Origin: Squalus acanthias | Lineage: Eukaryota | Assembly: GCA_030390025.1 (NCBI GenBank) | Contig: JASTWF010000048.1 | Coordinates: forward strand, 1,550,001-1,614,000 | Direction: 5' to 3' | DNA: 64,000 nt | Part shown: positions 9,258-57,283 of the stretch, piece after piece | Layout of the letters: each line of letters begins with the position of its first letter | How positions within the stretch are numbered: the stretch's first letter is position 1 | Translations under genes and position numbers: made by a program | The notes under the pieces: generated by a model | Database searches by the model: none | What the model was told of the DNA's origin: nothing | The model's input: only the letters and a program-made list of their open reading frames with translations

Positions 9258-10135
9258 ACTGTATCTAATCAGTGAGTGAGGGTCTTTGCTGTGTATCTAA
9301 TCAGTGTGTGAGGGTCTTTACTCTGTATCTAATCAGTGAGTGAGGGTCTTTACTGTGTATCTAATCAGTGTGTGAGGGTCTTTACTCTGTGTCTAATCAG
9401 TGAGTGAGGGTCTTTACTCTGTATCTAATCAGTCAGTGAGGGTCTTTACTGTGTATCTAATCAGTGTGTGAGGGTCTTTACGCCGTATCTAATCAGTGAG
9501 TGAGGGTCTTTACTCTGTATCTAATCAGTGTGTGAGGGTCTTTACTCTGTATCTAATCAGTGAGTGAGGGTCTTTACTCCGTATCTAATCAGTGAGTGAG
9601 GGTCTTTACTCTGTATCTAATCAGAGTGAGTGTCTTTACTCTGTATCTAATCAGTCAGTGAGGGTCTTTACGCTGTATCTAATCAGTGAGTGAGCGTCGT
9701 TACTCTGTATCTAATCAGTGTGTGAGGGTCTTTACTCTGTATCTAATTAGTCAGTGAGGGTCTTTACTCTGTATCTAATCAGTGAGTGAGGATCTTTACT
9801 CCGTATCTAATCAGTGAGTGAGGGTCTATACTCTGTATCTAATCAGTGTGTGAGGGTCTTTACTCTGTATCTAATCAGTGAGTGAGGGTCTTTACTCCGT
9901 ATCTAATCAGTGAGTGAGGGTCTTTACTCTGTATCTAATCAGAGTGAGTGTCTTTACTCTGTATCTAATCAGTCAGTGAGGGTCTTTACTGTGTATCTAA
10001 TCAGTGAGTGAGGATCTTTACTCCGTATCTAATCAGTGAGTGAGGGTCTTTACTCTGTATCTAATCAGTGTGTGAGGGTCTTTACTCTGTATCTAATCAG
10101 TGAGTGAGGGTCTTTACCCTGTATCTAATCATTGA
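9258..10135. repeat. 32-bp minisatellite, ~27 units
   Basis: Unit AGTGAGTGAGGGTCTTTACTCTGTATCTAATC, no unique spacers. Confidence 0.95.
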
Positions 10136-16285: not shown

Positions 16286-16344
16286 ACTCCCATTCATCCG
16301 CTGCAGGTTTTTGTAGCTGGGGAGCCGCTTTCTCAAACGCTGTG

Positions 16345-40860: not shown

Positions 40861-41368
40861 AAATAAAAGACCTCTCACCTCTGAGTCAGAGCGTTGTGTG
40901 TTCAAGTCCCACTCCAGAGACAGGAGCAGACATATCTAAGCTGAGGCAGTGTTGCACTTTCGGAGGGGCCGATCTGAAGGAGTGCTGTACTGTCAGAGGG
41001 GCCACTCTAAGGTGCACTACCGAAGCTTCAGTTCTGGCCAATGTTTATCCCTCAACCAACATCACTAAGCATAACTGATGATCTGGTCATTATCATATTG
41101 GCTGTTTGTGGGAGCTTGCCTTGCATGGATTTGCTGCGGTGTTTCCTACATTACCGCAGTAACTAGACTTAAAAATCTGGCGTCATTGGCGTTTAAGCTT
41201 TTCAGCACGCCCCGAGGCCGTGACACGCGCCATAGAAATGCAAACTCGTTCCATCCTTTAGTAATGATGTCGACTAGAGGGGACCCCTTCACAGGTGGTG
41301 ATGAGCGCACGGTAGGAGGCGACGGAGAAGGTTTTTGTATCAGTCTGCGGCAGTTTTGTACCGCTGTG

Positions 41369-41814
41369 CGTTACTCGCCGCGCAGTAATAGATCGCAGAG
41401 TCTGACTGTTCGGAGCCGTTCAGGTGCAGAGTGAACTGGTTGTTGGCAGCCTCGAGATGCACTGCGAATCGCTTCTCGAAATCGGGCCCACAGCTGCCGT
41501 ACTCACTGCACATCCACTCTAGCGCGCCGCCCTTTTGCCTGTACCAGAACATGTTGTAGCTGCTCATGCCACCTCCCTCCAAACTGCAGCCGAGAGTGAT
41601 CGTCTGTCCCGGTGGAATAGCGGCCGCGGCTGGAGACTGGACCACAGTGGGTGCCGCCGGACCACTAGATTAGATATTCAAAAAAAAGGCCTGTAAATGC
41701 AAGCTCTTCCTTTCTATTTTACTGTTGGCAAAGTATAGTTTAATGCTTACCACAGATCGGCAGAACGAGTGTCAACGTGACCAAGGTTGGGAGCAGTGTA
41801 GACGAGAAACACAT
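41369..41814 (-). pseudogene. TRBV: V11, short-CDR2 family; V domain open but 1 nt out of phase with its leader (leader 41814-41751, V exon 41664-41369)
   Basis: Leader MCFSSTLLPTLVTLTLVLPIC|GTAAGC (phase 1). The 5' end of the V exon is 1 nt shorter than in V12/V13. RSS CACAGCG-23-ACAAAAACC at 41368-41330. V identity is secure; pseudogene status depends on one base. Confidence 0.7.
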
Positions 41815-44800
41815 TGTCCTTCTCACGCAGTGAAACAGAGCCTTTGCGACAGCAGGCCACACATCAAATTTATCTCCTCGAAGGCAATGCCACCGCTGGT
41901 GACGAATTATGCGGGAGGGTCGAGCAGCCAATCGTGTGTTTGGGCCACGCAAGATTGAACATATGAGACGCGGTTCCTTTGATGACGTGGTGTTTGCAAA
42001 ATCGCAAGCTAAGAAGCAAGATCATACCATACAATCGTCGAATCTTGAAGCGCAGAAGGAGACCATTCGGCCCATCGAGCCTCTGCTGGCTCTTTGAGAG
42101 AGCTATCAAATTGGATCCACTCCTCTGCTCTTTCCGGATACCCCTGCAAATTGCATGTTTGGTACATCTTTCTTTCTAGCCTACTTTTTTTTCTTGCTGT
42201 CTTTCGTTGCTTGTTTCCATGTTGTTTTCCCTTTCTCTCCCTTTCTCTCATTTTTTTCTTGTGTTCCTCATTACTTTGCTTCTTTCTTTCTGCCCAGCCT
42301 TCATACATTGATTTATGTCTTCCGTCCTTTCAAGCCAATTTGCATTCTCTTCCATTGATAAGAAGTGAAATTATTTGGACTGCAGTGCACCAGAGTTGAG
42401 GTCGAAGATCAGCCATGCTCATGTCGAAAGGCGGAGCAGGCTCGAGGGCCGATTGGCCTATTCTTGCTCCTATTGCTTCTGTTCTCATCAAATGATGACA
42501 TTCTAGTGAGAATGGAGTATATGTGGTGCAGCAGTGCCATCTAGTGGTGTAGTAGTATATGACACTTAAGGAGTACATGACAATAATAAAGAAGGCAAGA
42601 TTGACTTGCATTTATATAGCGCCTTTCACGAACACCGGACGTCTATAGCGCTTTACAGAATACAAAGTAATTTTGAAGTGGAGTCACTGTTGTAATGTGG
42701 GGACCTCTGCAGCCAATTTGTGCACAGCGAGCTCCCACATACAGCAATGTGATACTCTCCAGATAATCTGTTTCTGACCTGTTGGCTGATAGTCTCGAAA
42801 TTAATAGGTTCAGAGCGTTTAAATATATATTTTATTCTTTTGAGGGATGTGGGCTTCGCTGACAAGGCCAGCATTTATGGCCCATCCATAACTGCCCTTC
42901 AGATGGTGGTGGGGAGCCGCCGTTTTGAACCGCTGCAGTCCGTGTTGTGAAGGTAATACTACAATGCAGTTACGAAGAGAGTTCCAGGATTTTGACCCTG
43001 CGACGATGAAGTATCGGCAATGTACTTCTAAGTCAGGATGGGGTGTGACTGGGAGGGGAACTTGGAGTTGGTGGTGTTTCCATGTGCCTGCTGCCCTTGT
43101 CCTTCTCGGTGGAATAGGTCGTTGGGAGGTGCTGCCGAAGAAGCCTTGGCGAGTTGCTGCAGTGCATCTTGTAGATGGTACACACTGCAGCCACGGTACG
43201 CCGGTGGTGGAGGGAGTGCATGTTTAAGATGTGGATGGGGTGGCAATCAAGCGGGCTGCTTTTCCCTGGATGTTGTCGAGCTTCTTGAGTGTTGTTGGAG
43301 CTGCAATCATCCAGGCAAGTGTATTCCATCACACTCCTTACTTGTGCCTCTATCGCGACATTGAGGTAGTAAAACGTCACAAAGCGCTTCGCAGATGCGT
43401 AAATCAGGCTGAAAGTGACACCGAACCACATAAGGAGATATTAGGGCAGCTGATCAAAAGCTCAGTCGAAGAGGTAGGTTTTCGGTGTGTTTAACAGAAG
43501 GAGAGAGATGCGGAGAGATTTAGGGAGGGAATTCCAGACCCTAGGGCCCAGACAGCTGAAGGCAAGGCATTCAATGGCAGTTGAAAATAGGATATCTGGA
43601 AGGGTCCGAATTTGGAGGAGTGCAGAGATCTCGGAGGGTTCTGTGGCTGGAGGAGTTAGGGATGTGGCGAGGCCACGGAGGGATTTGACACCAAGGATGA
43701 TAATTCTAACATCGCGAGACGTTGCTGATTGATATGTGAACTGGAATTGGTGCGAGTTTGGAAAATGGCAGGAGAGTTTCGGATGAGCTGAAGTTTAGGC
43801 GCAGGCAAGGTGAGTGGTCTTCCAGGAGATCATGGGAATAATCTGTAGCAGAATTTGTCCACAACGAAATTAGTCCACTCCAAACCCAGATATGAGGTGA
43901 GGAAATCGCCATTAGTGCAGTTCAAATACATCTGTTCATTCTAAGCTTGCTGCACTTACCTTATAGAATCATAGAATGGTTACAGCACAGAAGGAGGCCA
44001 TTCAGTCCTTCGTGCCCGTACCGGCTCTCTGCAAAAACACTTCAGCTAGTCCCACTCCACCGCCCTTTCCCCGTAGCCCTGCATTTCTTCCCCTTCAGGA
44101 ACTTATCCAATTCACTTTCGAAAGCCACGATTGCATTTGCCTCCACCACCTCCTCAGGCAGAGCATTCCGTATCCTAACCACTCGCTGCATAAAAAAAGT
44201 TTTTCCTCATGTCGCCTTTGGTTCTTTTGCCAATCAGCTTGAACCTGTGTCCTTTGGTTCTTGACCCTTCCGCCAATGGGAATTGTTTCTCTTTATCTAC
44301 TATGCCTATACCCCTCATGATTTTGAACACCTCTGTCAAATCTCCTCTCAACCTTTCCTGCTCTAAGGTGAACAACACTAGACTCTCGAGTCTATCCACG
44401 TAACTGAAGTCCGTTATCCCTGGAACCATTATTGTAAATGTTTTCTGCAGCTTCTCGAAGGCATTCAAATCCTTCGTAAAGTGCGGTGGTCAGAATTGGA
44501 CACAATATTCCAGTTCAGGCCGGACCAGTGTTTTATACAGATTCATCATAACGTCCTTGCTTTTGAATACTATGCCTCTATTTATGAAGTCCAGGATGTC
44601 ATGACTCTATTCCAAAATTTTATTTGGAATGGTGCACGTTTTGACAGCCGTGGCTCGTTTAGTAGACCTCTCGCCACTGAGTCAGAGGGTCGTGTGTTCA
44701 AGTCCCGAGTCCAGAGTCATGGTCAGACATATCTAAACTGAGGCATTGTTGCACTTTCGGAGGGGCAGTGCCGAAGGAGTGCTGCACTGTCAGAGGAGCC

Positions 44801-45171
44801 ACACTAAGGGAGTGTTGCACTGTCAAAAGTTAAGTTCTGGTCAATGTTTATCCCTCAACCAACATCACTAAGGAAAACTGATGATCTGCTTATTATCATA
44901 TTGGCTTTTTGTGGGAGCTTGCTGTGCATGTATTGGCTGCGGCGTTTCCTAAATTACAGCAGCGAATAGACTTAAAAATACGACGTCATTTGCGGTTACG
45001 CTTTTTAGCATGCCCAGAGGCCATGACCCGCGCCATACAAATGCAAACTCGTTCCTTCCTTTAGTAATTAAATTGTCCAGAGGGGACCCCTTCACAGGTG
45101 GCATAGAGTGCACGGTGGGAGGCGGGGGAGAAGGTTTTTGTATCAGTCTGCAGCAGTTTTGTACCGCTGTG

Positions 45172-45618
45172 CGATACTCGCCGCACAGTAGTAGGTCGCA
45201 GAGTCTGACTGTTCGGCGCCGTTCAGGTGCAGAGTGAACTGGTTATTGGCAGCCTCGAGTTGCTTTGCGAATCGCTTCTCGAAATCGGGCCCACAGCTGC
45301 CGAAGGCACTGCACATCCACTCGAGCGCGCCGCCCTTTTGCCTGTACCAGAACATGGTATAGCTGCTCATGCTCGCTCCCTCCAAACTGCAGCCGAGAGT
45401 GATCGTCTGTCCCTGTATAATAGCCGCCGCGGATGGAGACTGGACCACAGTGGGTGCTGCCCCGATCCCTAGATTAGATATTCAACAGAAAAAGGGCTGT
45501 AAGTGCAATTTCTTCATTTTTTTTACTGTTGGCAATGGATAGTTTAATGCTTACCACAGATCTGTAGAACGACCGTCAACGTGACCAAGGTTGGGAGCAT
45601 TGGAGAGGAGAAACCCAT
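45172..45618 (-). CDS. TRBV: V12, short-CDR2 TCR V segment (leader 45618-45555, V exon 45468-45172)
   Basis: Leader MGFSSPMLPTLVTLTVVLQIC|GTAAGC. V exon ...LGCSL...MFWYRQKGGALEWMCSAFGSC...DSATYYCAASI. RSS CACAGCG-23-ACAAAAACC at 45171-45133. Confidence 0.88.
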
Positions 45619-46757
45619 GGCCCTGCTCAAGCACTGAAAGAGAACCTTAGCGACAACAGTTTACCACTAAAATTGCTCTCCTCGATTGTAATGCCACCGT
45701 TGCTTACGAACTCTGAGGGAAAGTCGAGCAGCCAATCGTGTTGTACCACCGGAAGATTGAAGACGTGTGTCGCATTTCCTTTGATGACGTGGTGTTTGCA
45801 AAATCGCAAACAAAGAAGCAAGATCATATCATACAATCGTGGAGTCATAAAGCGCAGAAGCAGGGCATTCGGCCCATCGAGACTGTGCTGGCTCTTTGAG
45901 AGAGAGATGAAATTGATTCCACTCCTCTGATCTTTCCGGATAGCCCTGCAAATTGCATGTTCGGTACATCTGGCCAATCCGCCTTGGTTATGCGATCCAT
46001 CTTTTTTTCTTTCCTACTTTGTTTTCTTTCGTTATTTCTTTGCTTCCTTCCTTGTTTATTTACATTTCTCTCCCTTTCTGCCCTTTATTTTCTTTTGCTT
46101 CTCATTACTTCCCTTCTTTCTTTCTGTCCTGCCTACATTCATTGCTTTATCTCTTAGGTCCTTCGAAATCAATTTGCCTTCTCTTCCAATGATAACAAGT
46201 GAAATATTGCGCTTCACTTCACAAGAGGGCTATGGATGCTCAGCCGCTGAGCATTTTCAAGACTGATAGCGATACATTTTTGGACACTGTGGGAATCAAG
46301 CAATGTGGGGATAATGCGGGAAAGTGGAGTTGAGATCGAAGATCAGCCATTCTCTTATTGAATGGTGGAGCAGGCTCGACGGGCCGTGTGGCCTACTTCT
46401 GCACCTATTGATTATGTTCTCATGAAATGATTAAATTCCAGTGAGAATGGAGTATATGTGGTGCAGCAATGGCATCTAGTGGTGTAGTAATATATGACAC
46501 TTAAGGAGCACGTGACAATAATAAGGAAAGCAAGAACAACTTGCATTTATACAGCGCCTTTCACGACCACCGGATGTCTCAACGCGCTTTACAGCCAACG
46601 AATTACTTTTGAAGTGGTGTCACTGTTGTAATGTGGGAAAAGCGGCAGTCAATTTGCGCACAGAAAGCTCCCACAAACAGCAATGTGAAAATGACCAGAT
46701 CGTCTGTTTTTGTCATGTTGGTTGCTAGTCTCGAAATTGACAGGTGCAGACCATTTA

Positions 46758-46790
<33 letters not shown>

Positions 46791-49126
46791 TATTCGTTTA
46801 TGGGATGTGTGCGTCGCTGGCAAGGCCAGAATTTATTGCCTATCCCTAATTGACCTTTAGAAGAAGGTGGTGAACCGCCGTCTTGACCGCTGCAGTCCGT
46901 GTGGTGAAGGAACACCTACATTGCTATTTGAGAGTGAGTTCCAGGATTTTGAACCAGCGACGATGAACGATACGCGATATACTTCTAAGTCAGGATGGTG
47001 TGTGACTTGGAGGGGAACTTGGAGGTGGTGGTCTCCCCATGCGCCTGCTGCCCTTGTCCTTCTCGGGGGAAGAGGTCACGGGTTTGGGAGGAGCTGCCGA
47101 AAAAGAGCCGAGATGCTGCAGTGCATCTTGTAGATGGTAGACACTGCAGCGACGGTACGCCGGTGATGGAGGGAGTGAATGTTTAAGGTGGTGGATGGGG
47201 TGCCAATCAAGCGAGCTGCTTTGTCTTCGATGGAGTCGAGCTTCTCGAGTGTTGCTGGAGCTGCACTCATCCAGGTATTTGGAGAGCATTCCATCACACT
47301 CCTTACTTTTTCCTCTATAGCGTCTGTGACGTTGGAAAACGTCACAAAGCGATTTGCAGGAGCGTAAGTCAGGCCGAATGTGACACCGAGCCACCTAAGG
47401 AGATAAAAGGACAGCTGACCAAAAGCTCAGCCGAAGAGCTAGGTTTTAGGAGCGTTTAAAAGAAGGAGAGGCCGAGAGGTTTAGGGAGGGAATTCCAGAC
47501 CCTGGGTCCCAGACAGTTGAGGGCACGGCCGCCAATGGTGGAGTTGAAATTCGGGGATGCGGAAGGGGCCGGAATTAGAAGAGTGCTGAGATCTCAGAGG
47601 GTTGTGGGGCTGGAGGAGATAGGGAGGGGGCGAGGCCACGGATGGATTTGAAACCAAGGAAGATAATTCTAAATTCGCGACGTTGCTGATTGATGTGTGA
47701 ACGGGAAGTGGTGCGGGGTTTGATACCGGGAGCAGAGTTTCGGATGAGCTGAAGTTTAGGATCGGGCAAGGTGGGAGGTCTTCCAAGAGATCACTGGAAT
47801 AGTCTGCAGCAGAATTCGGCTACAACGAAAATAGTCCACTCCAAACGCAGATATGAGGTGAGGAAAACCCCATTTGTGCGGTCCAAATTCAGCTGTTCAT
47901 TCTAAGCTTGCTGCACTTACATTATCGAATCATAGAATGGTTACAGCACAGAAGGAGGCCATTCGCTCCGTCGAGCCCGTGCCGGCTCTCTGCAAAAACA
48001 CTTCACCTAGTCCCACTCCCCCGCCATTTCCCCGTAGCCCTGCATTATTTTCCCGTTTAGGTACTTATCCAAGTCCCTTTCGAAAGCCACGATAGAATCT
48101 GCCTCCACCACCCTCTCAGGCAGTGCATTCCAGATCCTAACCACTCGCTGCATAAAAAAAGTTTTTCCTCATGTCTCCTTTGGTTCTTTTGCCAATCACC
48201 TTGAATCTGTGTCCTTTGGTTCTCGACCCTTCCGCCAATGGGAACAGTTTCTCTCTATCTACTCTGTCTAGACCCCTCACGATTTAAATACCTCTATCAG
48301 ATCTCCTCTCAACCTTCTCTGCTCTAAGGAGAACAACCCCAGCTTCTCCAGTCTACCAAGTAACTGACGTCCCTCATCTCTAGAACCATTCTTGTAAATC
48401 TTTTCTGCACCTTCTCTAAGGGCTCCAAATCCTTCCTAAAGTGCGGTGGTCAGAATTGGACACAATACTCCAGTTGATGCCGGAACAATGCTTTAGAAAT
48501 GTTCCTAATAACTTCCTTGCTTTTGCACTCAATATCTGTATTTATCAAGCCAAGGATGCCATGACTCTATCCCAAAATGTAATTTGGAATGCTGCAAGTT
48601 TTAGCAAGCATGGCTCGTTTGGTAGAACTCTCGCCACTGAGTCAGATGGTCGTGTGTTCAAGTCCCACTCCAGAGTCATGGTCAGACATATCTAAGCTGA
48701 GTCAGTGTTGCACTTCGGAGGGGCAGTGCTGAAAGAGTGTTGCACTGTCAGAGGGGTCACACTAAGGGAGTGCTGCACTGTCGAATGTGCAGTTCTGGAC
48801 AATGCTTATCCCTCAACCAACATCACTAAGCAAAACTGATGATCTGCTCATTGACACATTGGCTGTTTGTGGGAGCTTGTTCTGCATGGATTGGCTGCGG
48901 CGTTTCCTACATTACGGCAGCGACTAGACTTTACAATATAGCGTCATTGGCGGTTAAGCTTTTCAGCACGCCCCGAGGTCGTGACCCGCGCCATGGAAAT
49001 GCAATCTCGTTCCTTCCTTTAGTCATTAATTTGTCCAGAGGGGACCCCTTCACAGGTGGCGATGAGCGTACGGTGGGCGGGACAGGAGGTTTTTGTATCA
49101 GCCTGCTGCAGTTTTATGTCGCTGTG

Positions 49127-49583
49127 CGAGACTCGCCGCACAGTAGTAGGTCGCAGAGTCTGTCTGTTCGGAGCCTTCCAGGTGCAGAGTGAACTGGTTA
49201 TTGTCAGCCTCGAGTTGCACTGCGAATCGCTTCTCGAAATCGGGCCCACAGCTGCCGTAGGCACTGCACATCCACTCAAGCGCGCCGCCCTTTTGCCTAT
49301 ACCAGAACATGCTGTAGCTGCTCATGCTCGCTCCCTCCAAACTGCAGCCGAGAGTGATCTTCTGTCCCTTTGGAATAGCGGCCGCGGATGGAGACTGGAC
49401 CACAGTGGGTGCTGCCCGGACCCCTAGATTAGATATTCAACAGAAAAAAAGCCCTGTAAATGCAAGCAAATCCTTTTTTGTAACCGTTGGCAATGGATAG
49501 TTAAATGCTTACCGCTTACCACAGACCACTAGCACGAACGTTAACGTGACCAAGGTTGGGAACATTGTAGACGAGAAACACAT
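49127..49583 (-). CDS. TRBV: V13, short-CDR2 TCR V segment (leader 49583-49520, V exon 49423-49127)
   Basis: Leader MCFSSTMFPTLVTLTFVLVVC|GTAAGC. Open V exon ending YYCAASL. RSS CACAGCG-23-ACAAAAACC at 49126-49088. Confidence 0.88.
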
Positions 49584-50852
49584 CGCCCTTCTCACGCAGT
49601 GAAACAGAGCTTTTGCGACAGCAGGCCACACACTAAATTGATCTCCTCGAATGGCAATGCCACCGCTGGTGACGAACTATGCGGGAAGGTCGAGCAGCCA
49701 ATCGTGTGATTGGAACACGCAAGATTGAACACATGAGACGCGTTTCCTTTGATGACGTGGAGTTTGCAAAATCGCAAACAAAGAAGAAAGATCATACCAT
49801 ACAATCGTCGAAACATGAAGCTCAGAAGGAGGACATTCGGCCCAGCGAGCCTGTGCTGGCTCTTTGAGAGAGCTCTCACACTGGTTCCACACCTCTGCTC
49901 TTTCCGGACACCTCTGCAAATTGTATGTTCGGTACATGTAGCGAAAACGCCTGGGTTAAGCTATCCATTTTTCTTTCTTTCCTACTTTTTTTATTCCTTT
50001 CTTCCTCTGCTTCATTCCTTGTTTATTTCCCTTTCTCTCCCTTTCTCTCCTTTGTTCGTTTGTTCCTGATTACTTTCCTTCTTTCTTTCTGCCCTGCCTC
50101 CATTCATTGCTTTTTTCCGTCGTTCCTTCCAAGCCTAGTTGCCTTCTCTTCCATTGATAAGAACTGAAATTATTTGGGCTTCACTACAACAGACGGTTGT
50201 GGATGCTCAGTCGCTGAGCATTTTCAAGACTGATAGTGATAGATTTTTGGAGACGAAGGGAATCAAGGGATATGTGGGATAATGCGGGAAAGTGGAGTTG
50301 AAGTCGAAGATCAGCCATGCTCATATTGAATGGTGGAGATGGCTCGAAGGGCAGTATGCCCTACTTCAGCTCCGAATGATTGTGTACTCATGAAATGACT
50401 AAATTCCAGTGAGAATGGGGTATATGTGGTGCAGCAGTGCCATCTAGTGGTGTAGTTGTATATGACACTTAAGGAGCACATGACAATAATGAAGAAAGAA
50501 AGACTTGCCTTTACAAAATGCCTTTCACGACCACTGGACGTCTCAAAGAGCTTTACAGCCAACAAAGCACCTTTGAAGTGGAGTCACTGTTGTAATGTGG
50601 GAAACGCGGCAGCCAATTTGCGCACAGCAAGCTCCCACAAACAGCGATGTGAAAATAACCCGATCGTCTGCTTTTGTCATGTTAATGGTCACTATCGAAA
50701 TTGATAGGCTCAGAGCATTTACATATATATATTATTATTCGTTTATGGGATTTGGCCGTCGCTGGCAAGGCCAGCATTTATTACCCATCCCTAATTGCCC
50801 TTCAGAAGATCGTGGTGAGCCGTCATTTGATAGTTTTGATTTGGCTAAATCG

Positions 50853-53205
50853 TGGGGCAGTACTGAAGGTGTTCTCCAATGTCGGAGGGGTTGACCTGGG
50901 GGAGCACTGCTGTATCGGAGTGGCAGTACTGAGGGATGGCTGCACTCTCGAAGAGGCAGTATTGAGGGTGCGCTGTACTGTCGGAGGGGCAGTACTGAGG
51001 GTGCGCTGCACTGTCGGAGGGGAAGTACTGAGTGATCGCTGCACTGAGTGAGGGGCAGTACTGAGGGGTCCGCTTCACTGTCGGAGGGGCAGTACTTAGG
51101 AGCGCCGCACTGTCGGAGGGGCACTACTGAGGGAGCGCTGCACTTTCGGGGAGGCAGTACTGAGGGAGTGCTGCATTGTCGGAAGGGCTGTACTGAGGGA
51201 GCGCTGCACCGTCGGAGGGGCTGCAATAAGGGGGCGCTGCAATGTTGGAGGGGCAGTACTGAGGGAGCGTTGCACTATTGGAGGGTCAGTACTGGGGTTC
51301 CGCTGCACTGTCGGAGGTGTAGTACTGAGGGAGCGCCGCACTGTCGGAGAGGCAGTACTGAGGGAGCGCTGCAATGTACGAGAGGCAGTCTTGAGGGAGC
51401 GCTGCACTGTCGGAGGGGCGTTACTGAGGGAGCGCTGCAGCGATGGAGTGGCAGCTCTGAGGGGCCGGTGCAATATCGGACGGGCAGTACTTAGCAGCGC
51501 CGCTCTGTCTGAGGGGCAGTAATGAGGGAGGGCTGCAATGTGGGAGGGGCAATATTGAGGGAGCACTGCATTGTCGGAGGGGCATTACTGAGTGAACTCC
51601 ACAGTTGGATAGGCAGTACTGAGGGAGATCTGCACTATCGCAGGTGCAGTACCGGGGGCGCGCTCCATTGTCCGAGACGCAGTACTGAGGGAGCGCTGCG
51701 CTGTGTGGAAGGCAGTACTTAGGGAGTGCCACACTGTGGGAGGGGCAGTATTGCGGGAACGTCGCACCGTGGGAGGGGCAAAACTGAAAGATTGCTGCAC
51801 TGTAGGAGGGGAAGTACTGAGGGTGTGCTGCACTGTGGGATGGTCGGTACTGAGGGTGCGCTACACTGTCGGAAGGGCAGTACTCAGGTGGCGCTGCAAT
51901 GTGGGAGGTGCAGTATTGAGGGAGTGCGGCACTGTCGGAGAGGCGCTACTGAGGGATCAGTACACCATCGGAGGGGCGATACTGGAGGGGCGCTGCACTG
52001 TCGGTGGGGCAGTACTGAGGAGCACCGTGCTGTCGGGGGGGGCAGTAATGAGGGAGCGCTCCAATGTGGAAGCGGCAGCTCTGATGGAGCGCTGGACTGT
52101 CAGAGGGGCAGTACTTTGGGAGCGTTGCAGTGTCGGAGGGGCAGTATTTGGGGAGTGCTGCACTCTCGGAGGGTCAATACTGAAAGTGCGCTGCACTGTC
52201 GGAAGGGCAGTACTGAGGGAGTGCTGCACTGTAGGAGGTCATCACTGAGGGAGTGCTGCACTGTAGGAGGGCAGTACTGAGGGATGGCTGCAATTTCGGA
52301 GGTGCAGGACTGAGGGAGCGCTACACTGTCGGATGGACAGTACTAAGACAGCGTTCCACTTTCGGAGGGGCAGTATTGAGGGATGGCTCCACTGTCGGAG
52401 AGGCAGTACTGAAGGAACGCTGCACTGTTGGGGGGACAGTACTGTGGGTGCACGACACTGTCGGAGGGTCAGTACTGAGGGAGTGCTGCACCGTCGGAGG
52501 GGCATTACCGAAGTGGCACTGCACTATCAGAGGGGCAATACTGGGGGTGCGCTGCACTGTCGGACGGGCAGTACTGAGGGAGCACTGCACTGTCGGAGGG
52601 GCAGTACTGACGGAGCACTGCAATGTGGGAGGGGCAGTATTGAGGGAGCACTGCAGAGTCGCTGATGCACTACTGAGGGAGAGCAGCATTTTATGCTGGG
52701 CTGTACTGAGGGACCACTGCAATGTCGGAGGGGATGTACTGAGGGTGCTCTGCACTGTCGGAGGGGCAGTATTGAGGGAGTGCTGCACTGTGGGAGGGGC
52801 AGTACTGAGCAAGTGCTGCAATGTGGAAGGGGCAGTACTGAGGGAGCGCCGCACTCTCGGAGGGGTGGCACCGAGAGAGCTCTGCGCAGTGGGAGGGGCA
52901 GTATTGCGGTAGTGCTGCACTGTGGGAGTTGCTGTCTGAAGGAGTGCTGCACTTTCGGAAGGGCAGCACTGAGGGAGGACTGCCCTGTCGGTGGGGCAGA
53001 GCTGAGGGTGTGCCGCACTGTCAGAAGCGCAGTACTGAGGGAGCGCTGCACTGTCGGAAGCGCAGTACTGAGGGAGCGCTGCACTGTCGGAGGCGCAGTA
53101 CTGAGGGAGTGCTGCATTGTCGGAGGTGCAGTACTGAGGGTGTGCCGCACTGTCGGAGGGGCAGTACTGAGTGAGCTCCGCACTGTAGGAGGAGCAGTCC
53201 TTAGC
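50853..53205 (+). repeat. 33-bp SINE-derived minisatellite, ~70 degenerate units
   Basis: Same 33-bp unit; produces spurious 11-aa repeat ORFs. Confidence 0.92.
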
Positions 53206-53432
53206 AATGTTTATCTCTCTGCCAACATCACTAAAAAAAAACAGATACTCTGGTCATTACGGGGACAATTTGTAGGAGTTTACTATGTAGAAATTGGCTG
53301 CTGCGTTTAGCACGGCTTAGTAATGCAAATTGATTCGCTAGATTACTGAGTTGTCTCGAAGGCACCGATGAGCGCACGGTGGGAGGGTGAGAAGGTTTTT
53401 GTATCAGTCTGCGGCAGGTTTGTGTCGCTGTG

Positions 53433-54098
53433 CGAGACTCGCCGCACAGTAATAGGTCGCAGATTCTGTCAGCTCGGAGCCTTCCAGTTGCAGAGTCAAC
53501 TGGTTGTCTGCTGCCTCGAGTTTCACTTTGAATCGCTCCTCGAAACCGGGCCCATAGCTGCCGAACTCATTGCACACCCATTCTATGGCGCCTCCCTTTT
53601 GCCTGTACCAGTGCATTCTGAAGCTGCTTATGCTTGCTCCCTCCAAACTGCAGCCAAGAGTGAGGGGCTGTTGCCGTCGAATAGCGGCCGCGGCGGGAGT
53701 CTAGACCGCAGTAGGAGCAGCCCGAATACCTAGTTTAGATTTAAACAAAGAAAGCGGTTTAGAATCATGGAAGGAAGATCTTAGCATAAAACCGTAGAAT
53801 CGTGAAGCACAGAAGTAGGCTATTCGGCCCATAATGCCCGTGCCGGCACTGTGAAAGAACTATTTTGCGAGTGGCTTTTTCCCCTGCTCTTATCCCGTAG
53901 TAATTCAAATCCCCCATTCAAGTATTGATCCAAATTCCATTTTGGAACTTATTATTGGATTTACTTTCACTTGCATAACAACGCAATTTCTTTCGTTTAC
54001 TCTGCCAAAGGATATTTCAATGCATTGCACTGACAACAGAACCAATGTCCGAGCGATAAGGCGACAAAGATTAACAACATTCGAGATGAGAAACACAT
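53433..54098 (-). pseudogene. TRBV: V14 pseudogene, short-CDR2 family (V exon 53729-53433, leader relic from 54098)
   Basis: FR1 Gln CAG>TAG stop. Leader splice donor lost. RSS CACAGCG-23-ACAAAAACC at 53432-53394. Confidence 0.85.
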
Positions 54099-55331
54099 CG
54101 CCCCTTCTCAGGAAGTGAGAGTCAGGGTTACTCAGCAACAACCTGTCGCCTGTAAAATTGCTCTCCTCAACGGAAATGCCACCGGTTGTGACGAACTGCA
54201 CGTACGTATTGAGCAGCTCATCTTGTGATTGGACCGCACAAGTCAGCAGATTGAACAAATGAGAAGCAGTTCCTTTACTAGCATTGTTTTTGCGAATACA
54301 TCAAAGTAGAAGGAACATTATAGCACGGAATCATAGAATTATACAGTGGCGAAGGAGAGCTGCCCAAGTAGTCCCAATAACCCTGCTCTTTCCCCATATT
54401 TCTGCATATTGTATGTTCGCTATTTCTAGCAAAATAAACCGGGNNNNNNNNNNNNNNNNNNNNNNNNNNNNNNNNNNNNNNNNNNNNNNNNNNNNNNNNN
54501 NNNNNNNNNNNNNNNNNNNNNNNNNNNNNNNNNNNNNNNNNNNNNNNNNNNNNNNNNNNNNNNNNNNNNNNNCCTCATTTCTTCTTTCCTTCTTTCATTC
54601 CTATTTTTCCTCCTTTCTTCCATGCAAAATTGCTTTATCTTCTGCTGATTAGAAATTAGATGCTTTGTGTTCCAGTGAGAATTGTTTACATGTGATGCAA
54701 CATTGTCATCGGGTGGTGCAGTGGCATCTGACACTCAAGAAACACATGAAAATAATCTCGCAATTAACAGGTTAAGAGGAAGTCATCCGACATTGCTAAC
54801 CAACTTTCTTTAAGAAGAATACATTTTGGCACTATTTTCAGCAAATATTTGTGCTTCTGAGCTGAGAAATGACATGAATTGTTAAGGCGCACTGTGGCTG
54901 CATTGTGTACCAGCTACAAGATGCAACTCGCCAAGGCTTCTTCGACAGCACCTCTACCATGTAGAACAACAAGGGCCAAAGGTGCAGAGGAACACCATCG
55001 CCTCCAATTCCCCTCCAAGTCACACACTATCCTGACTTGGAAATAAATCACCGTTCCTTCATTATCGCTGGGTGAAAATCCTGGAACTTCGTCCTAAACA
55101 GCACCGTGGGAGTACCTTCACCAGACCTACTGCAGCGATTCAAGAAGGTGGCTCACCACCACCTTCTCAAGGGCAGTTAGGAATGGGCAATAAACACGGG
55201 CATTGCCAACGAAATCCACATCCCGTGAAAGAATTTAAAAAATTCGGTTCCTTTATATCGCCGCTGGCGAGAGGTGCCTTTCTTCCTCAGTGAGTTTTTG
55301 TCACGACGCCCTGCATTCTTAGAACACTGTG

Positions 55332-56147
55332 CGCGCCCCTGTACTCTTTGTGCGCCACACAGTAATAAATGCCGCTGTCTTGGGCCCGGGTATTAGTCAG
55401 GGAGACCCTGTAAGTGTTGTTTTCAGGGGCAAATTGGACGTCAATCCTATTTCTGTAGTTAGGTGAAGAAAAGACACCCAATCTGACGGAATCCAGGCGG
55501 TCCCCGATCTGCACGTACCAGTCGAGCCAATAGTTACTCATGTTGCCCGGCCCGATACTGCAGTCGAACACGGCTTCCTCCCCTGGAACATGGACGGTGG
55601 CCGACGGGAACTGGACGACTAGTCGTTGGGAACGAACATCTGAAAGATTATGTAAAAAAACAGTCAGGCAGATCGATCGTAAATGGACAATAGCGGGTGG
55701 CAGGGAGTATGAAAGGGACACAGGCTGGAGCAGAAGAAAGAGAAAAGGAAAGAAACAAATTAGTTTTTCTGAAATCGCGGTGTTATCTCCTCGCTTCTAT
55801 TTGCTCTACAGGTTATACGTCGGGTTTATTGAACTGATGCAAGTATAAACGCGCGAAACTCGGAAGTGGAAAGGACAAAGACAAACGGGCTCAGTCTGGA
55901 TCTGAAAGAGGGCATTTAAATATTTTTCCGATGATCTGCTATCAAAATAAGTATAACTTTTACTCGGATCAAAGAACAGCAAAGTATTTGAATTTGGTTA
56001 ACGAAGTACAATATATCAATACATAACGTCATCAATACGAACATTAATTGTCGTTAACCCGATAGCAATGTTACGAAATGGACGAATAGGGTTTACTGTC
56101 TCATACATACAAGAATTGGACAGCAGAAATATGGAAAGCCAATACAT
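55332..56147 (-). CDS. V15, divergent V segment with long germline CDR3 tail (putative leader 56147-56111, V exon 55639-55332)
   Basis: Open exon ...VVQFP...FDCSI...WLDWYVQ...DSGIYYCVAHKEYRGA. RSS CACAGTG-23-ACAAAAACT at 55331-55293. Short phase-1 leader MYWLSIFLLSNS|GTATGT (less certain). Confidence 0.85.
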
Positions 56148-57283
56148 AACGAGAATTGTCTTCCGGTAATAGTTCAGCCTCCTTTGCAAACTGATGTCAA
56201 ACTACTTTCAGGTCGTTTTCAGAGGAGGATGGTCTCGATAAAGATTGTACTCGCGCCACAATGACCGTTGCGTAGACGACTGGTAAATAAATGAACTGCT
56301 TCTGCACTTGGAGCGAGCGCTGGGAACGCCCACCGCAAAACTGCGCACGCAACGCCTCCAATCATATGTTCGATGCAATGCGCTGCCAACAGCGCACCAA
56401 TGGAACCATTGATGGGAAGAGAGATGTAAACCCGGAGACCGTCCCAGGTTCCCGCCCACAGATGGAGAAAATGGTTGAAAGAGAGAGACTGGACGAGAGA
56501 GGGACCGAGAGAGGCAGAAAGAGAAAGAGACTGACAGACTGACAAAGACGTATGGAGATTCAAAAGAAACGAGGTGATACAGAGAATGAGAGAGACTGGA
56601 CGAGAGAGAGAGTGAGAGGGTGAGATAGACAGGGGCAGAGGGCGAGCACATGAGGGAGGGAGAGAGACTCAGAAATGGAGGGAGAGAAAATGATAGCGAC
56701 AGAGAGAGAATGAGACAGGGACAGACAAAGAGAGAGAGGGAGCAGAGAGAGAGCGAGAGAGAGATAGCAAGAAAGAGAGGAAATAAGCGAGTAAAAGAGT
56801 GCCAGAGAGAGATTGAGAGAGAGAGAGCAACAGAGAGACAGAGGGACAGAGAGGAAGAAAGCGATTTTGCAAAAAAAAAGAATGAATACTACGTTTATAA
56901 AAAATCGGGCAAGACTCGGTTGGAATGCAATTGTGAGAAGTCGCACGACACCAGGACATCGTCCAACAGTTTTATTTGAAATCACAAGCCTTCGGAGCGC
57001 TGCTCCTTCGTCAGGTGAAGTGAAATTGTTAGAGGTTAGACGGCGAGCGTCGAGTCCAATGAAACAGTTCATAGATTCGCGCAATGTTTTCATGAAGTTA
57101 GAATCTACTGGATCAAATGGGAGTCATCCCGATATTTGTGGATCGAATGAGCGGTCGGGAGACTTCCGGTGTTCGTGGTGTCGCGGTGTCACCGTCTGAC
57201 AGTTGAGACGATCGCATTGATCATGCTTTGGGTCTGACTGAGGGTCTTTTTGTCAAAGAGAGGCGGTGTTTTCACACGCCGTG

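Follow-up and report, generated by a model that had tools for sequence, protein, structure and literature searches.

Why does a V segment of Squalus acanthias carry 27 germline nucleotides between its second Cys and its recombination signal, and where could this tail have come from? The segment, V15, lies on the minus strand of the window, i.e., of the whole 64,000-nt stretch of DNA that was analysed (C3311:1550001-1614000 of the 3.7-Gb genome; features are given in window positions unless C3311 is indicated). Its leader exon (56111..56147) consists of MYWLSIFLLSNS plus 1 nt, is followed by a GT donor and, once spliced across the phase 1 GT..AG leader intron (55640..56110) to the V exon, reads open through the tail; V15 retains this intron and is therefore not a retrocopy. 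The V exon (55332..55639, with Cys23, Trp41, Cys104, and a short CDR2) is identified by a V-set profile (PF07686, 32.2 bits against a cut-off of 26), by the predicted fold, and by structure superposition. The model computed with a 27-row alignment has a pLDDT of 87, falling below 50 at the final tail residues, and superposes on antibody V domains with a TM-score of about 0.8; it supersedes the poor single-sequence fold (pLDDT 50). The family-specific 23-RSS (55293..55331) comprises the heptamer 55331-55325, the spacer 55324-55302, and the nonamer 55301-55293. An earlier note on this DNA described it as perfect; the heptamer is indeed consensus and the spacer is 23 nt long, but the nonamer has one mismatch, hence near-perfect is the better term. 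A high-copy repeat (54886..55243) lies 3' of the RSS, outside the gene. With the leader, splice sites, ORF, and RSS all intact, V15 is probably a functional TRBV gene.

The assignment to the TCR beta locus depends on the contig. C3311 carries two opposed D-J-C clusters with two C1-set C exons: cluster A on the plus strand, with D-A at C3311:960540-960552 (13 nt, G-rich), 35 J segments by motif, and C at 1014591; and cluster B on the minus strand, with D-B at C3311:1098948-1098961 (14 nt, A/C-rich in its 3' half), 4 J segments, and C at 1073406. A genome-wide D pattern gives 37 matches, and those on C3311 are exactly D-A and D-B; strict D patterns yielded nothing useful. The core of D-A is the same as that of the tetrapod D quoted in the available part of PMC11754216, and from such GGGACAG-type Ds we infer that the locus is TCR beta. 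V15 shows the features of a TRBV gene: position in this locus, a V-set fold with open exons, and a 3' RSS with a 23-nt spacer. The two C exons (C3311:1014591-1014878, plus strand, and 1073406-1073699, minus strand) face each other and are just 37% identical; two beta C regions so dissimilar may deserve a study of their own.

The surrounding V array shows several further features. Four tandem Vs ending in CAAS and having a short CDR2 occupy 41368-53730 on the minus strand; three of them have two additional Cys residues around CDR2, which may form an intra-loop disulfide, likewise seen in a catshark relative, and the copy at 53432 (53394..53730, minus strand, 1.9 kb downstream of V15) has a stop in FR1. 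Other damaged Vs of the window have stops at 57283, 26899, and 19945, while the tail at 16344 is one base below the length of its family. Two 23-RSS-like sites with related spacers (18330-18292 and 7955-7917, minus strand) are preceded by decayed V-like sequence with no intact YYC. The sole 12-RSS-like match of the window falls in a tandem repeat of about 30 nt at about 9260-9450 and is attributed to chance. Elsewhere, at G000:C911:385-495 kb, IgH-like Vs with 9-nt tails and 23-RSSs stand in tandem at intervals of about 4 kb, and no D was seen in between; this array may be TAILV-like.

How unusual is V15 among V genes? Its identity to the other V families of the genome does not exceed about 35%. 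Maximum-likelihood trees pair V15 with a paralogue on a long stem (branch of about 1.8 changes per site), within a poorly resolved short-CDR2 group that also takes in the CAAS Vs together with Vs of gar, teleosts, and amniotes; the support for this group is 94/84 in the tree of 44 rows and 88/87 after removal of one long-branch row, an unassigned V from C23. The sister relation of V15 to the CAAS Vs is weakly supported (60/7). In both trees V15 falls outside the IgH-like (TAILV-type), IgL, and TRA-like clades, where the class labels for rows from C29, C911, C130, C449, C3553, and C24 are assigned from motifs; the trees contained no verified NAR-TCR or TRG rows. Of the descriptions offered earlier, the atypical V stands, V15 being a subgroup on a long branch for which the collections searched gave no close protein match, and the new V class falls, given the V-set fold and the moderately supported grouping with adjacent short-CDR2 Vs. 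Word-indexed searches returned no V15 orthologue at E <= 0.001; HMMER against 1.84 billion representatives gave 142 matches, all of them generic Ig domains with 22-44% identity; the Atlas search with V15 gave generic V-set clusters only, and the metagenome scan for V15 gave 0/125. None of these negatives proves that other sharks lack V15.

Residues Tyr, Gln, Leu, and Trp of FR2 have known roles in the interface between paired chains. V15 retains the interface Tyr, Gln, and Leu; the Trp of the CAAS family and of the paralogues is replaced by Ser, and the usual Arg by Val. The earlier note considered this FR2 unusually polar, which is not the case: its 12-mer is the most hydrophobic among 36 distinct FR2 12-mers. 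The short CDR2 is real (53 residues from Trp to Cys, compared to 56-59 in most Vs) but was overstated as a peculiarity of V15, since the four neighbouring CAAS-ending Vs have 54. The chain pairing of V15 may be changed, a suggestion that hangs on the single Trp-to-Ser replacement; its polar-FR2 premise has failed. The same Ser enters a broader alternative, by which V15 would belong to another chain type (delta-, gamma-, or light-chain-like, or unpaired), reside in the TRB array, and be used without a D or with another C. V-J loci typically show long tails without a D, e.g., zebrafish TRGV (PMC10322711, in its available part); V15 groups with amniote Vs that seem TRDV-like, labelled Ig-like or hypothetical by their sources; and the two C exons of the locus are dissimilar. 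However, V15 lies outside the three clades of other chain types in both trees, its near relatives occur on C3311 exclusively, the interface Tyr, Gln, and Leu are kept, and its clade includes the CAAS Vs of this locus as well as teleost Vs that gene models appear to join to C-beta-like sequence. We regard the other-chain explanation as very unlikely.

The tail (55332..55358) encodes VAHKEYRGA and separates Cys104 (55361-55359) from the heptamer, which begins at 55331, in agreement with the 27 nt initially reported. Also in agreement, the other Vs have shorter tails: 84 of 86 RSS-bearing V ends have 11-16 nt, the remaining two being V15 and its twin, and all 19 further V ends examined have 12-16 nt; the counts cover about 460 kb plus these 19 ends, a part of the V array, which extends over at least 0.40-2.21 Mb of C3311. 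V15 represents a highly divergent subgroup of TRBV, and its germline CDR3 end is exceptionally long, about twice the usual length. The heptamer-like CACAAAG pointed out near the place where the V would normally end is present (55352-55346), but has no nonamer at a distance of 12 or 23 (2/9 and 4/9 matches, respectively) and is thereby ruled out as a working RSS; a 7-mer of this kind is contained in 236 of 2312 window 27-mers.

Thirteen related stretches were found, every one on C3311 (13/13 DNA matches). The twin, at about C3311:1899762, is 97.75% identical over 1200 nt; in the V exon it shows six differences, four synonymous and two replacement (codons classed by hand), and none in the leader (0/37), the tail, or the RSS. 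The V order of the window repeats about 294 kb away (C3311:1.84-1.95 Mb) with about 98% identity, as a segmental duplication or as two haplotypes. Eleven paralogues, 75-81% identical to V15, are pseudogenes. All have a common 1-nt frameshift, an 18-nt tail of the G-A-S/G-E-D-A type, and a repeat of 560-590 nt inserted at the start of the spacer; since one frameshift and one insertion are common to all, the eleven count as one lineage. The insertion inactivates the RSS and shows an apparent target-site duplication at the heptamer-spacer boundary; the copies carrying it were amplified to eleven and are located on both sides of the D-J-C region. A CAAS-family V follows 1.9-5.2 kb downstream in 10 of 13 family members and lies about 50 kb away in two, and none is listed for one. 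Past the repeat, a remnant of the paralogue RSS matches the V15 spacer in register at 14-16 of 23 positions, compared to 6-8 of 23 for D-A. The RSSs of V15 and the paralogues are homologous, and therefore the RSS dates from the common ancestor of the family. Upstream of the RSS, the tail of V15 has a net 9 nt more than those of the paralogues.

The tail of V15 most likely goes back to a tandem duplication of its own RSS, one copy of which decayed and now serves as CDR3 codons; we consider this probable on sequence comparison. Tail positions 55355-55337 (V end, heptamer, and spacer of the likely first copy, including CACAAAG) match the last codon, heptamer, and spacer at 55334-55309 in 17 of 19 positions with one 7-nt gap. 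The score is equalled by 69 of 100,000 shuffles and 70 of 62,226 window 24-mers (p about 0.001, which becomes about 0.006 after correction, as the match was found post hoc among about six sources: D-A, D-B, two IgH D1, FR3, and the spacer). Among 89 distinct V ends, V15 has the top self-match (22, compared to 17 for the next). A 13-nt block of the tail (55348-55336) matches the V15 spacer at 10/13 and the paralogue spacers, which belong to a separate lineage, at 11/13 in seven of eleven copies and 10/13 in four; with one remnant tested, the background is 5/15,551, and 11/10,000 for shuffles. The extra bases of V15 do repeat the adjacent sequence, in degenerate rather than exact form. The presumed course would be that about 28 nt, comprising the last codon, the heptamer, and the first two thirds of the spacer, were duplicated in tandem; the first copy would then have lost 7 nt, which killed its heptamer and left CACAAAG; 12 nt of older tail codons, still present in the paralogues, would have been lost from V15; and the first copy would have decayed to coding sequence, with the second remaining as the working 23-RSS. 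The duplication and the two losses would sum to a net +9 nt, equal to the difference between V15 and the paralogues. Duplication of the RSS, a single mechanism, explains the length of the tail, CACAAAG, and most of the D-like G-run; its case comes from one genome.

Against an RSS origin counts a tail 7-mer that also recurs in FR3 of V15, and the course above requires three events where a plain indel requires one. Could the V end, then, have simply drifted, with a 9-nt indel of other origin (e.g., FR3 slippage) and substitutions, the likeness to the RSS and to D being accidental? A single 9-nt gap does align the V15 and paralogue tails (11/18), and germline tails vary elsewhere: the RSS starts at positions 22-34 in zebrafish TRGV, and at 27-29 in six sturgeon TRBV rows, classed ORF, in the available part of PMC10322711. 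Nevertheless, plain drift explains neither the collinear 17/19 self-match nor the 11/13 match to paralogue spacers, and seems rather improbable to us.

The D-like motif in the tail was the basis for the earlier proposal of a germline-joined V-D, and the motif is real: at 55345-55333, 9 of 13 nt agree with D-A, one base away from being flush. In this account, germ-cell RAG activity created an old germline join of the V to D-A, or a piece of D-A was captured between the V end and the RSS; the paralogues later lost the 9-nt D core, and V15 is a pre-joined VD able to go directly to J. Germ-cell rearrangement has been reported in sharks, for light chains (PMC2193156, in the part available), and a V-D join persists in the translocon of opossum as VH3.1 (PMC12269197 and PMC3454362, likewise). 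Taken alone, the match to D-A is nominally significant: it is the best of 50 V ends, and 0.3% of the 15-mers from V exons or the window, 1.5% of the G-matched ones, and 8% of shuffles do as well. In a joint alignment, D-A with its RSS takes rank 2 of 99 when compared to the final 14 nt of V15 with the RSS. The tail splits neatly into 13 V-like nt, which is the tail length of the sister family, 13 D-like nt, and 1 nt; the 9 nt by which the paralogue tails are shorter may be assigned to the D-like core (our own placement). A paralogue tail match of 10/13 to D-A is rare (0 of 4095 V-exon 18-mers) and is readable as a second trace of D, at the cost of two further indels.

The native D and its surroundings do not extend this likeness. 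The V15 spacer matches that of D-A at 7/23 (rank 21 of 67, V spacers scoring above) and that of D-B at 6/23 (rank 23 of 67), and the 3' flank shows no similarity to that of D-A (best E 0.56); a very old join could have erased the trace in both spacer and flank. All eleven paralogues with 18-nt tails carry the homologous RSS and not a different V-type one. Their tails reach 9-10/13 to D-A straight after Cys, where they can also be taken for ordinary tails of the A-S-E type, and 8/13 occurs in three ordinary V ends; hence, the low-complexity D-A is easy to match. When the V15 peptide is kept and the codons are randomised, at least 9/13 to D-A is obtained in 13% of trials. In one scoring scheme, p for D-A is 0.18 (shuffle) or 0.013 (window), compared to 0.0007 for the own RSS (shuffle). 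Furthermore, V15 sits among unjoined Vs with no J adjoining; its distance is about 506 kb to D-B and 645 kb to D-A. The germline join is therefore possible but not favoured, and we consider it unlikely; the likelihoods attached to all four explanations of the tail and its gene are judgements rather than computed values.

Other donors were rejected as well. The match of the tail to D-B is at chance level. IgH D1 has a 7-nt word in common with the tail (p 0.004-0.03 per test, 0.02-0.06 for any of five Ds), and the comparison of its spacer gives p of about 0.08; the same genome holds IgH-type clusters with their own Ds. The available parts of PMC5931798, PMC12227049, and PMC13433984 contain nothing on shark TRB D or V15.

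If the tail is a decayed RSS copy followed by a working one, how would V15 be used? Like its neighbours, it would be cut by RAG in thymocytes via the intact 23-RSS. Without trimming, joining to D and J would give a CDR3 about 14 nt above the usual length, while joining straight to a J with a 12-RSS would give a CDR3 of normal length with a fixed HKEYRG core: the computed untrimmed junctions are 55-63 nt for V15-D-J via D-A, 42-50 nt for V15-to-J, and 41-49 nt for the usual V-D-J. Direct V-beta-to-J-beta joining obeys the 12/23 rule, yet is restricted in mammals ('beyond 12/23'). The latter rule is named in the available part of PMC11520388. For V15, ordinary V-D-J joining with heavy trimming appears somewhat more likely than direct joining to J. 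Some T cells using V15 would carry a binding loop that is long or partly fixed. We doubt the boldest interpretation, that V15 is a D-independent TCR-beta V: its tail, derived from its own RSS by exaptation or from an ancient germline V-D join, would replace D, and V15 would join J directly and mark an innate-like subset of shark T cells whose CDR3 is semi-invariant (HKEYRG) and whose pairing surface is changed. Three small same-species runs cover just the repeat beside V15 and, their TCR-beta content not being established, are neutral on expression.

So far, V15 is a curiosity of one V subgroup. Should the duplication of the RSS be correct, a recombination signal has become antigen-binding codons, which constitutes a route to a long germline CDR3, and a shark V gene may have come by a D-like tail otherwise than through a germline join; our literature search found no report of such a route among the 20 papers listed of 189. 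V15 could further serve to find out whether direct V-beta-to-J-beta joining is barred in sharks, as 'beyond 12/23' demands.

Several known systems resemble V15 in part. In shark IgH VD-J clusters, V and D are joined in the germline. These clusters and opossum VH3.1 have, like V15, a long germline tail before an RSS able to reach J; however, VH3.1 is diagnosed by its D-type 12-bp RSS (PMC12269197 and PMC3454362, available parts), whereas the 3' RSSs of TRB V and D both have 23-bp spacers, and the spacer and flank of V15 are not those of a D. A precedent for a germline V lengthened by duplication at its 3' end is bovine IGHV1-7 (PMC5994613, available part), where, as probably in V15, a short duplication extends the contribution to CDR3; there, the duplication covers 8 nt of coding sequence in an antibody V that is linked to a single long D, whereas in V15 the duplicated piece is apparently the RSS itself, in a TCR V. 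The CAAS-ending Vs, catshark GCB66420.1, and the gar, teleost, and amniote relatives have a short CDR2 and a similar CDR1, and V15 differs from this clade by its long stem branch and long tail. Finally, the TRB locus of Chiloscyllium punctatum, according to the available part of PMC10322711, has two opposed D-J-C clusters, as here, Ds of 13-14 nt, and TRBVs with the same leader-intron-V-23RSS layout as V15; in all 35 TRBVs listed there, the RSS begins between +14 and +20 relative to the Cys codon, while that of V15 would be at +31.
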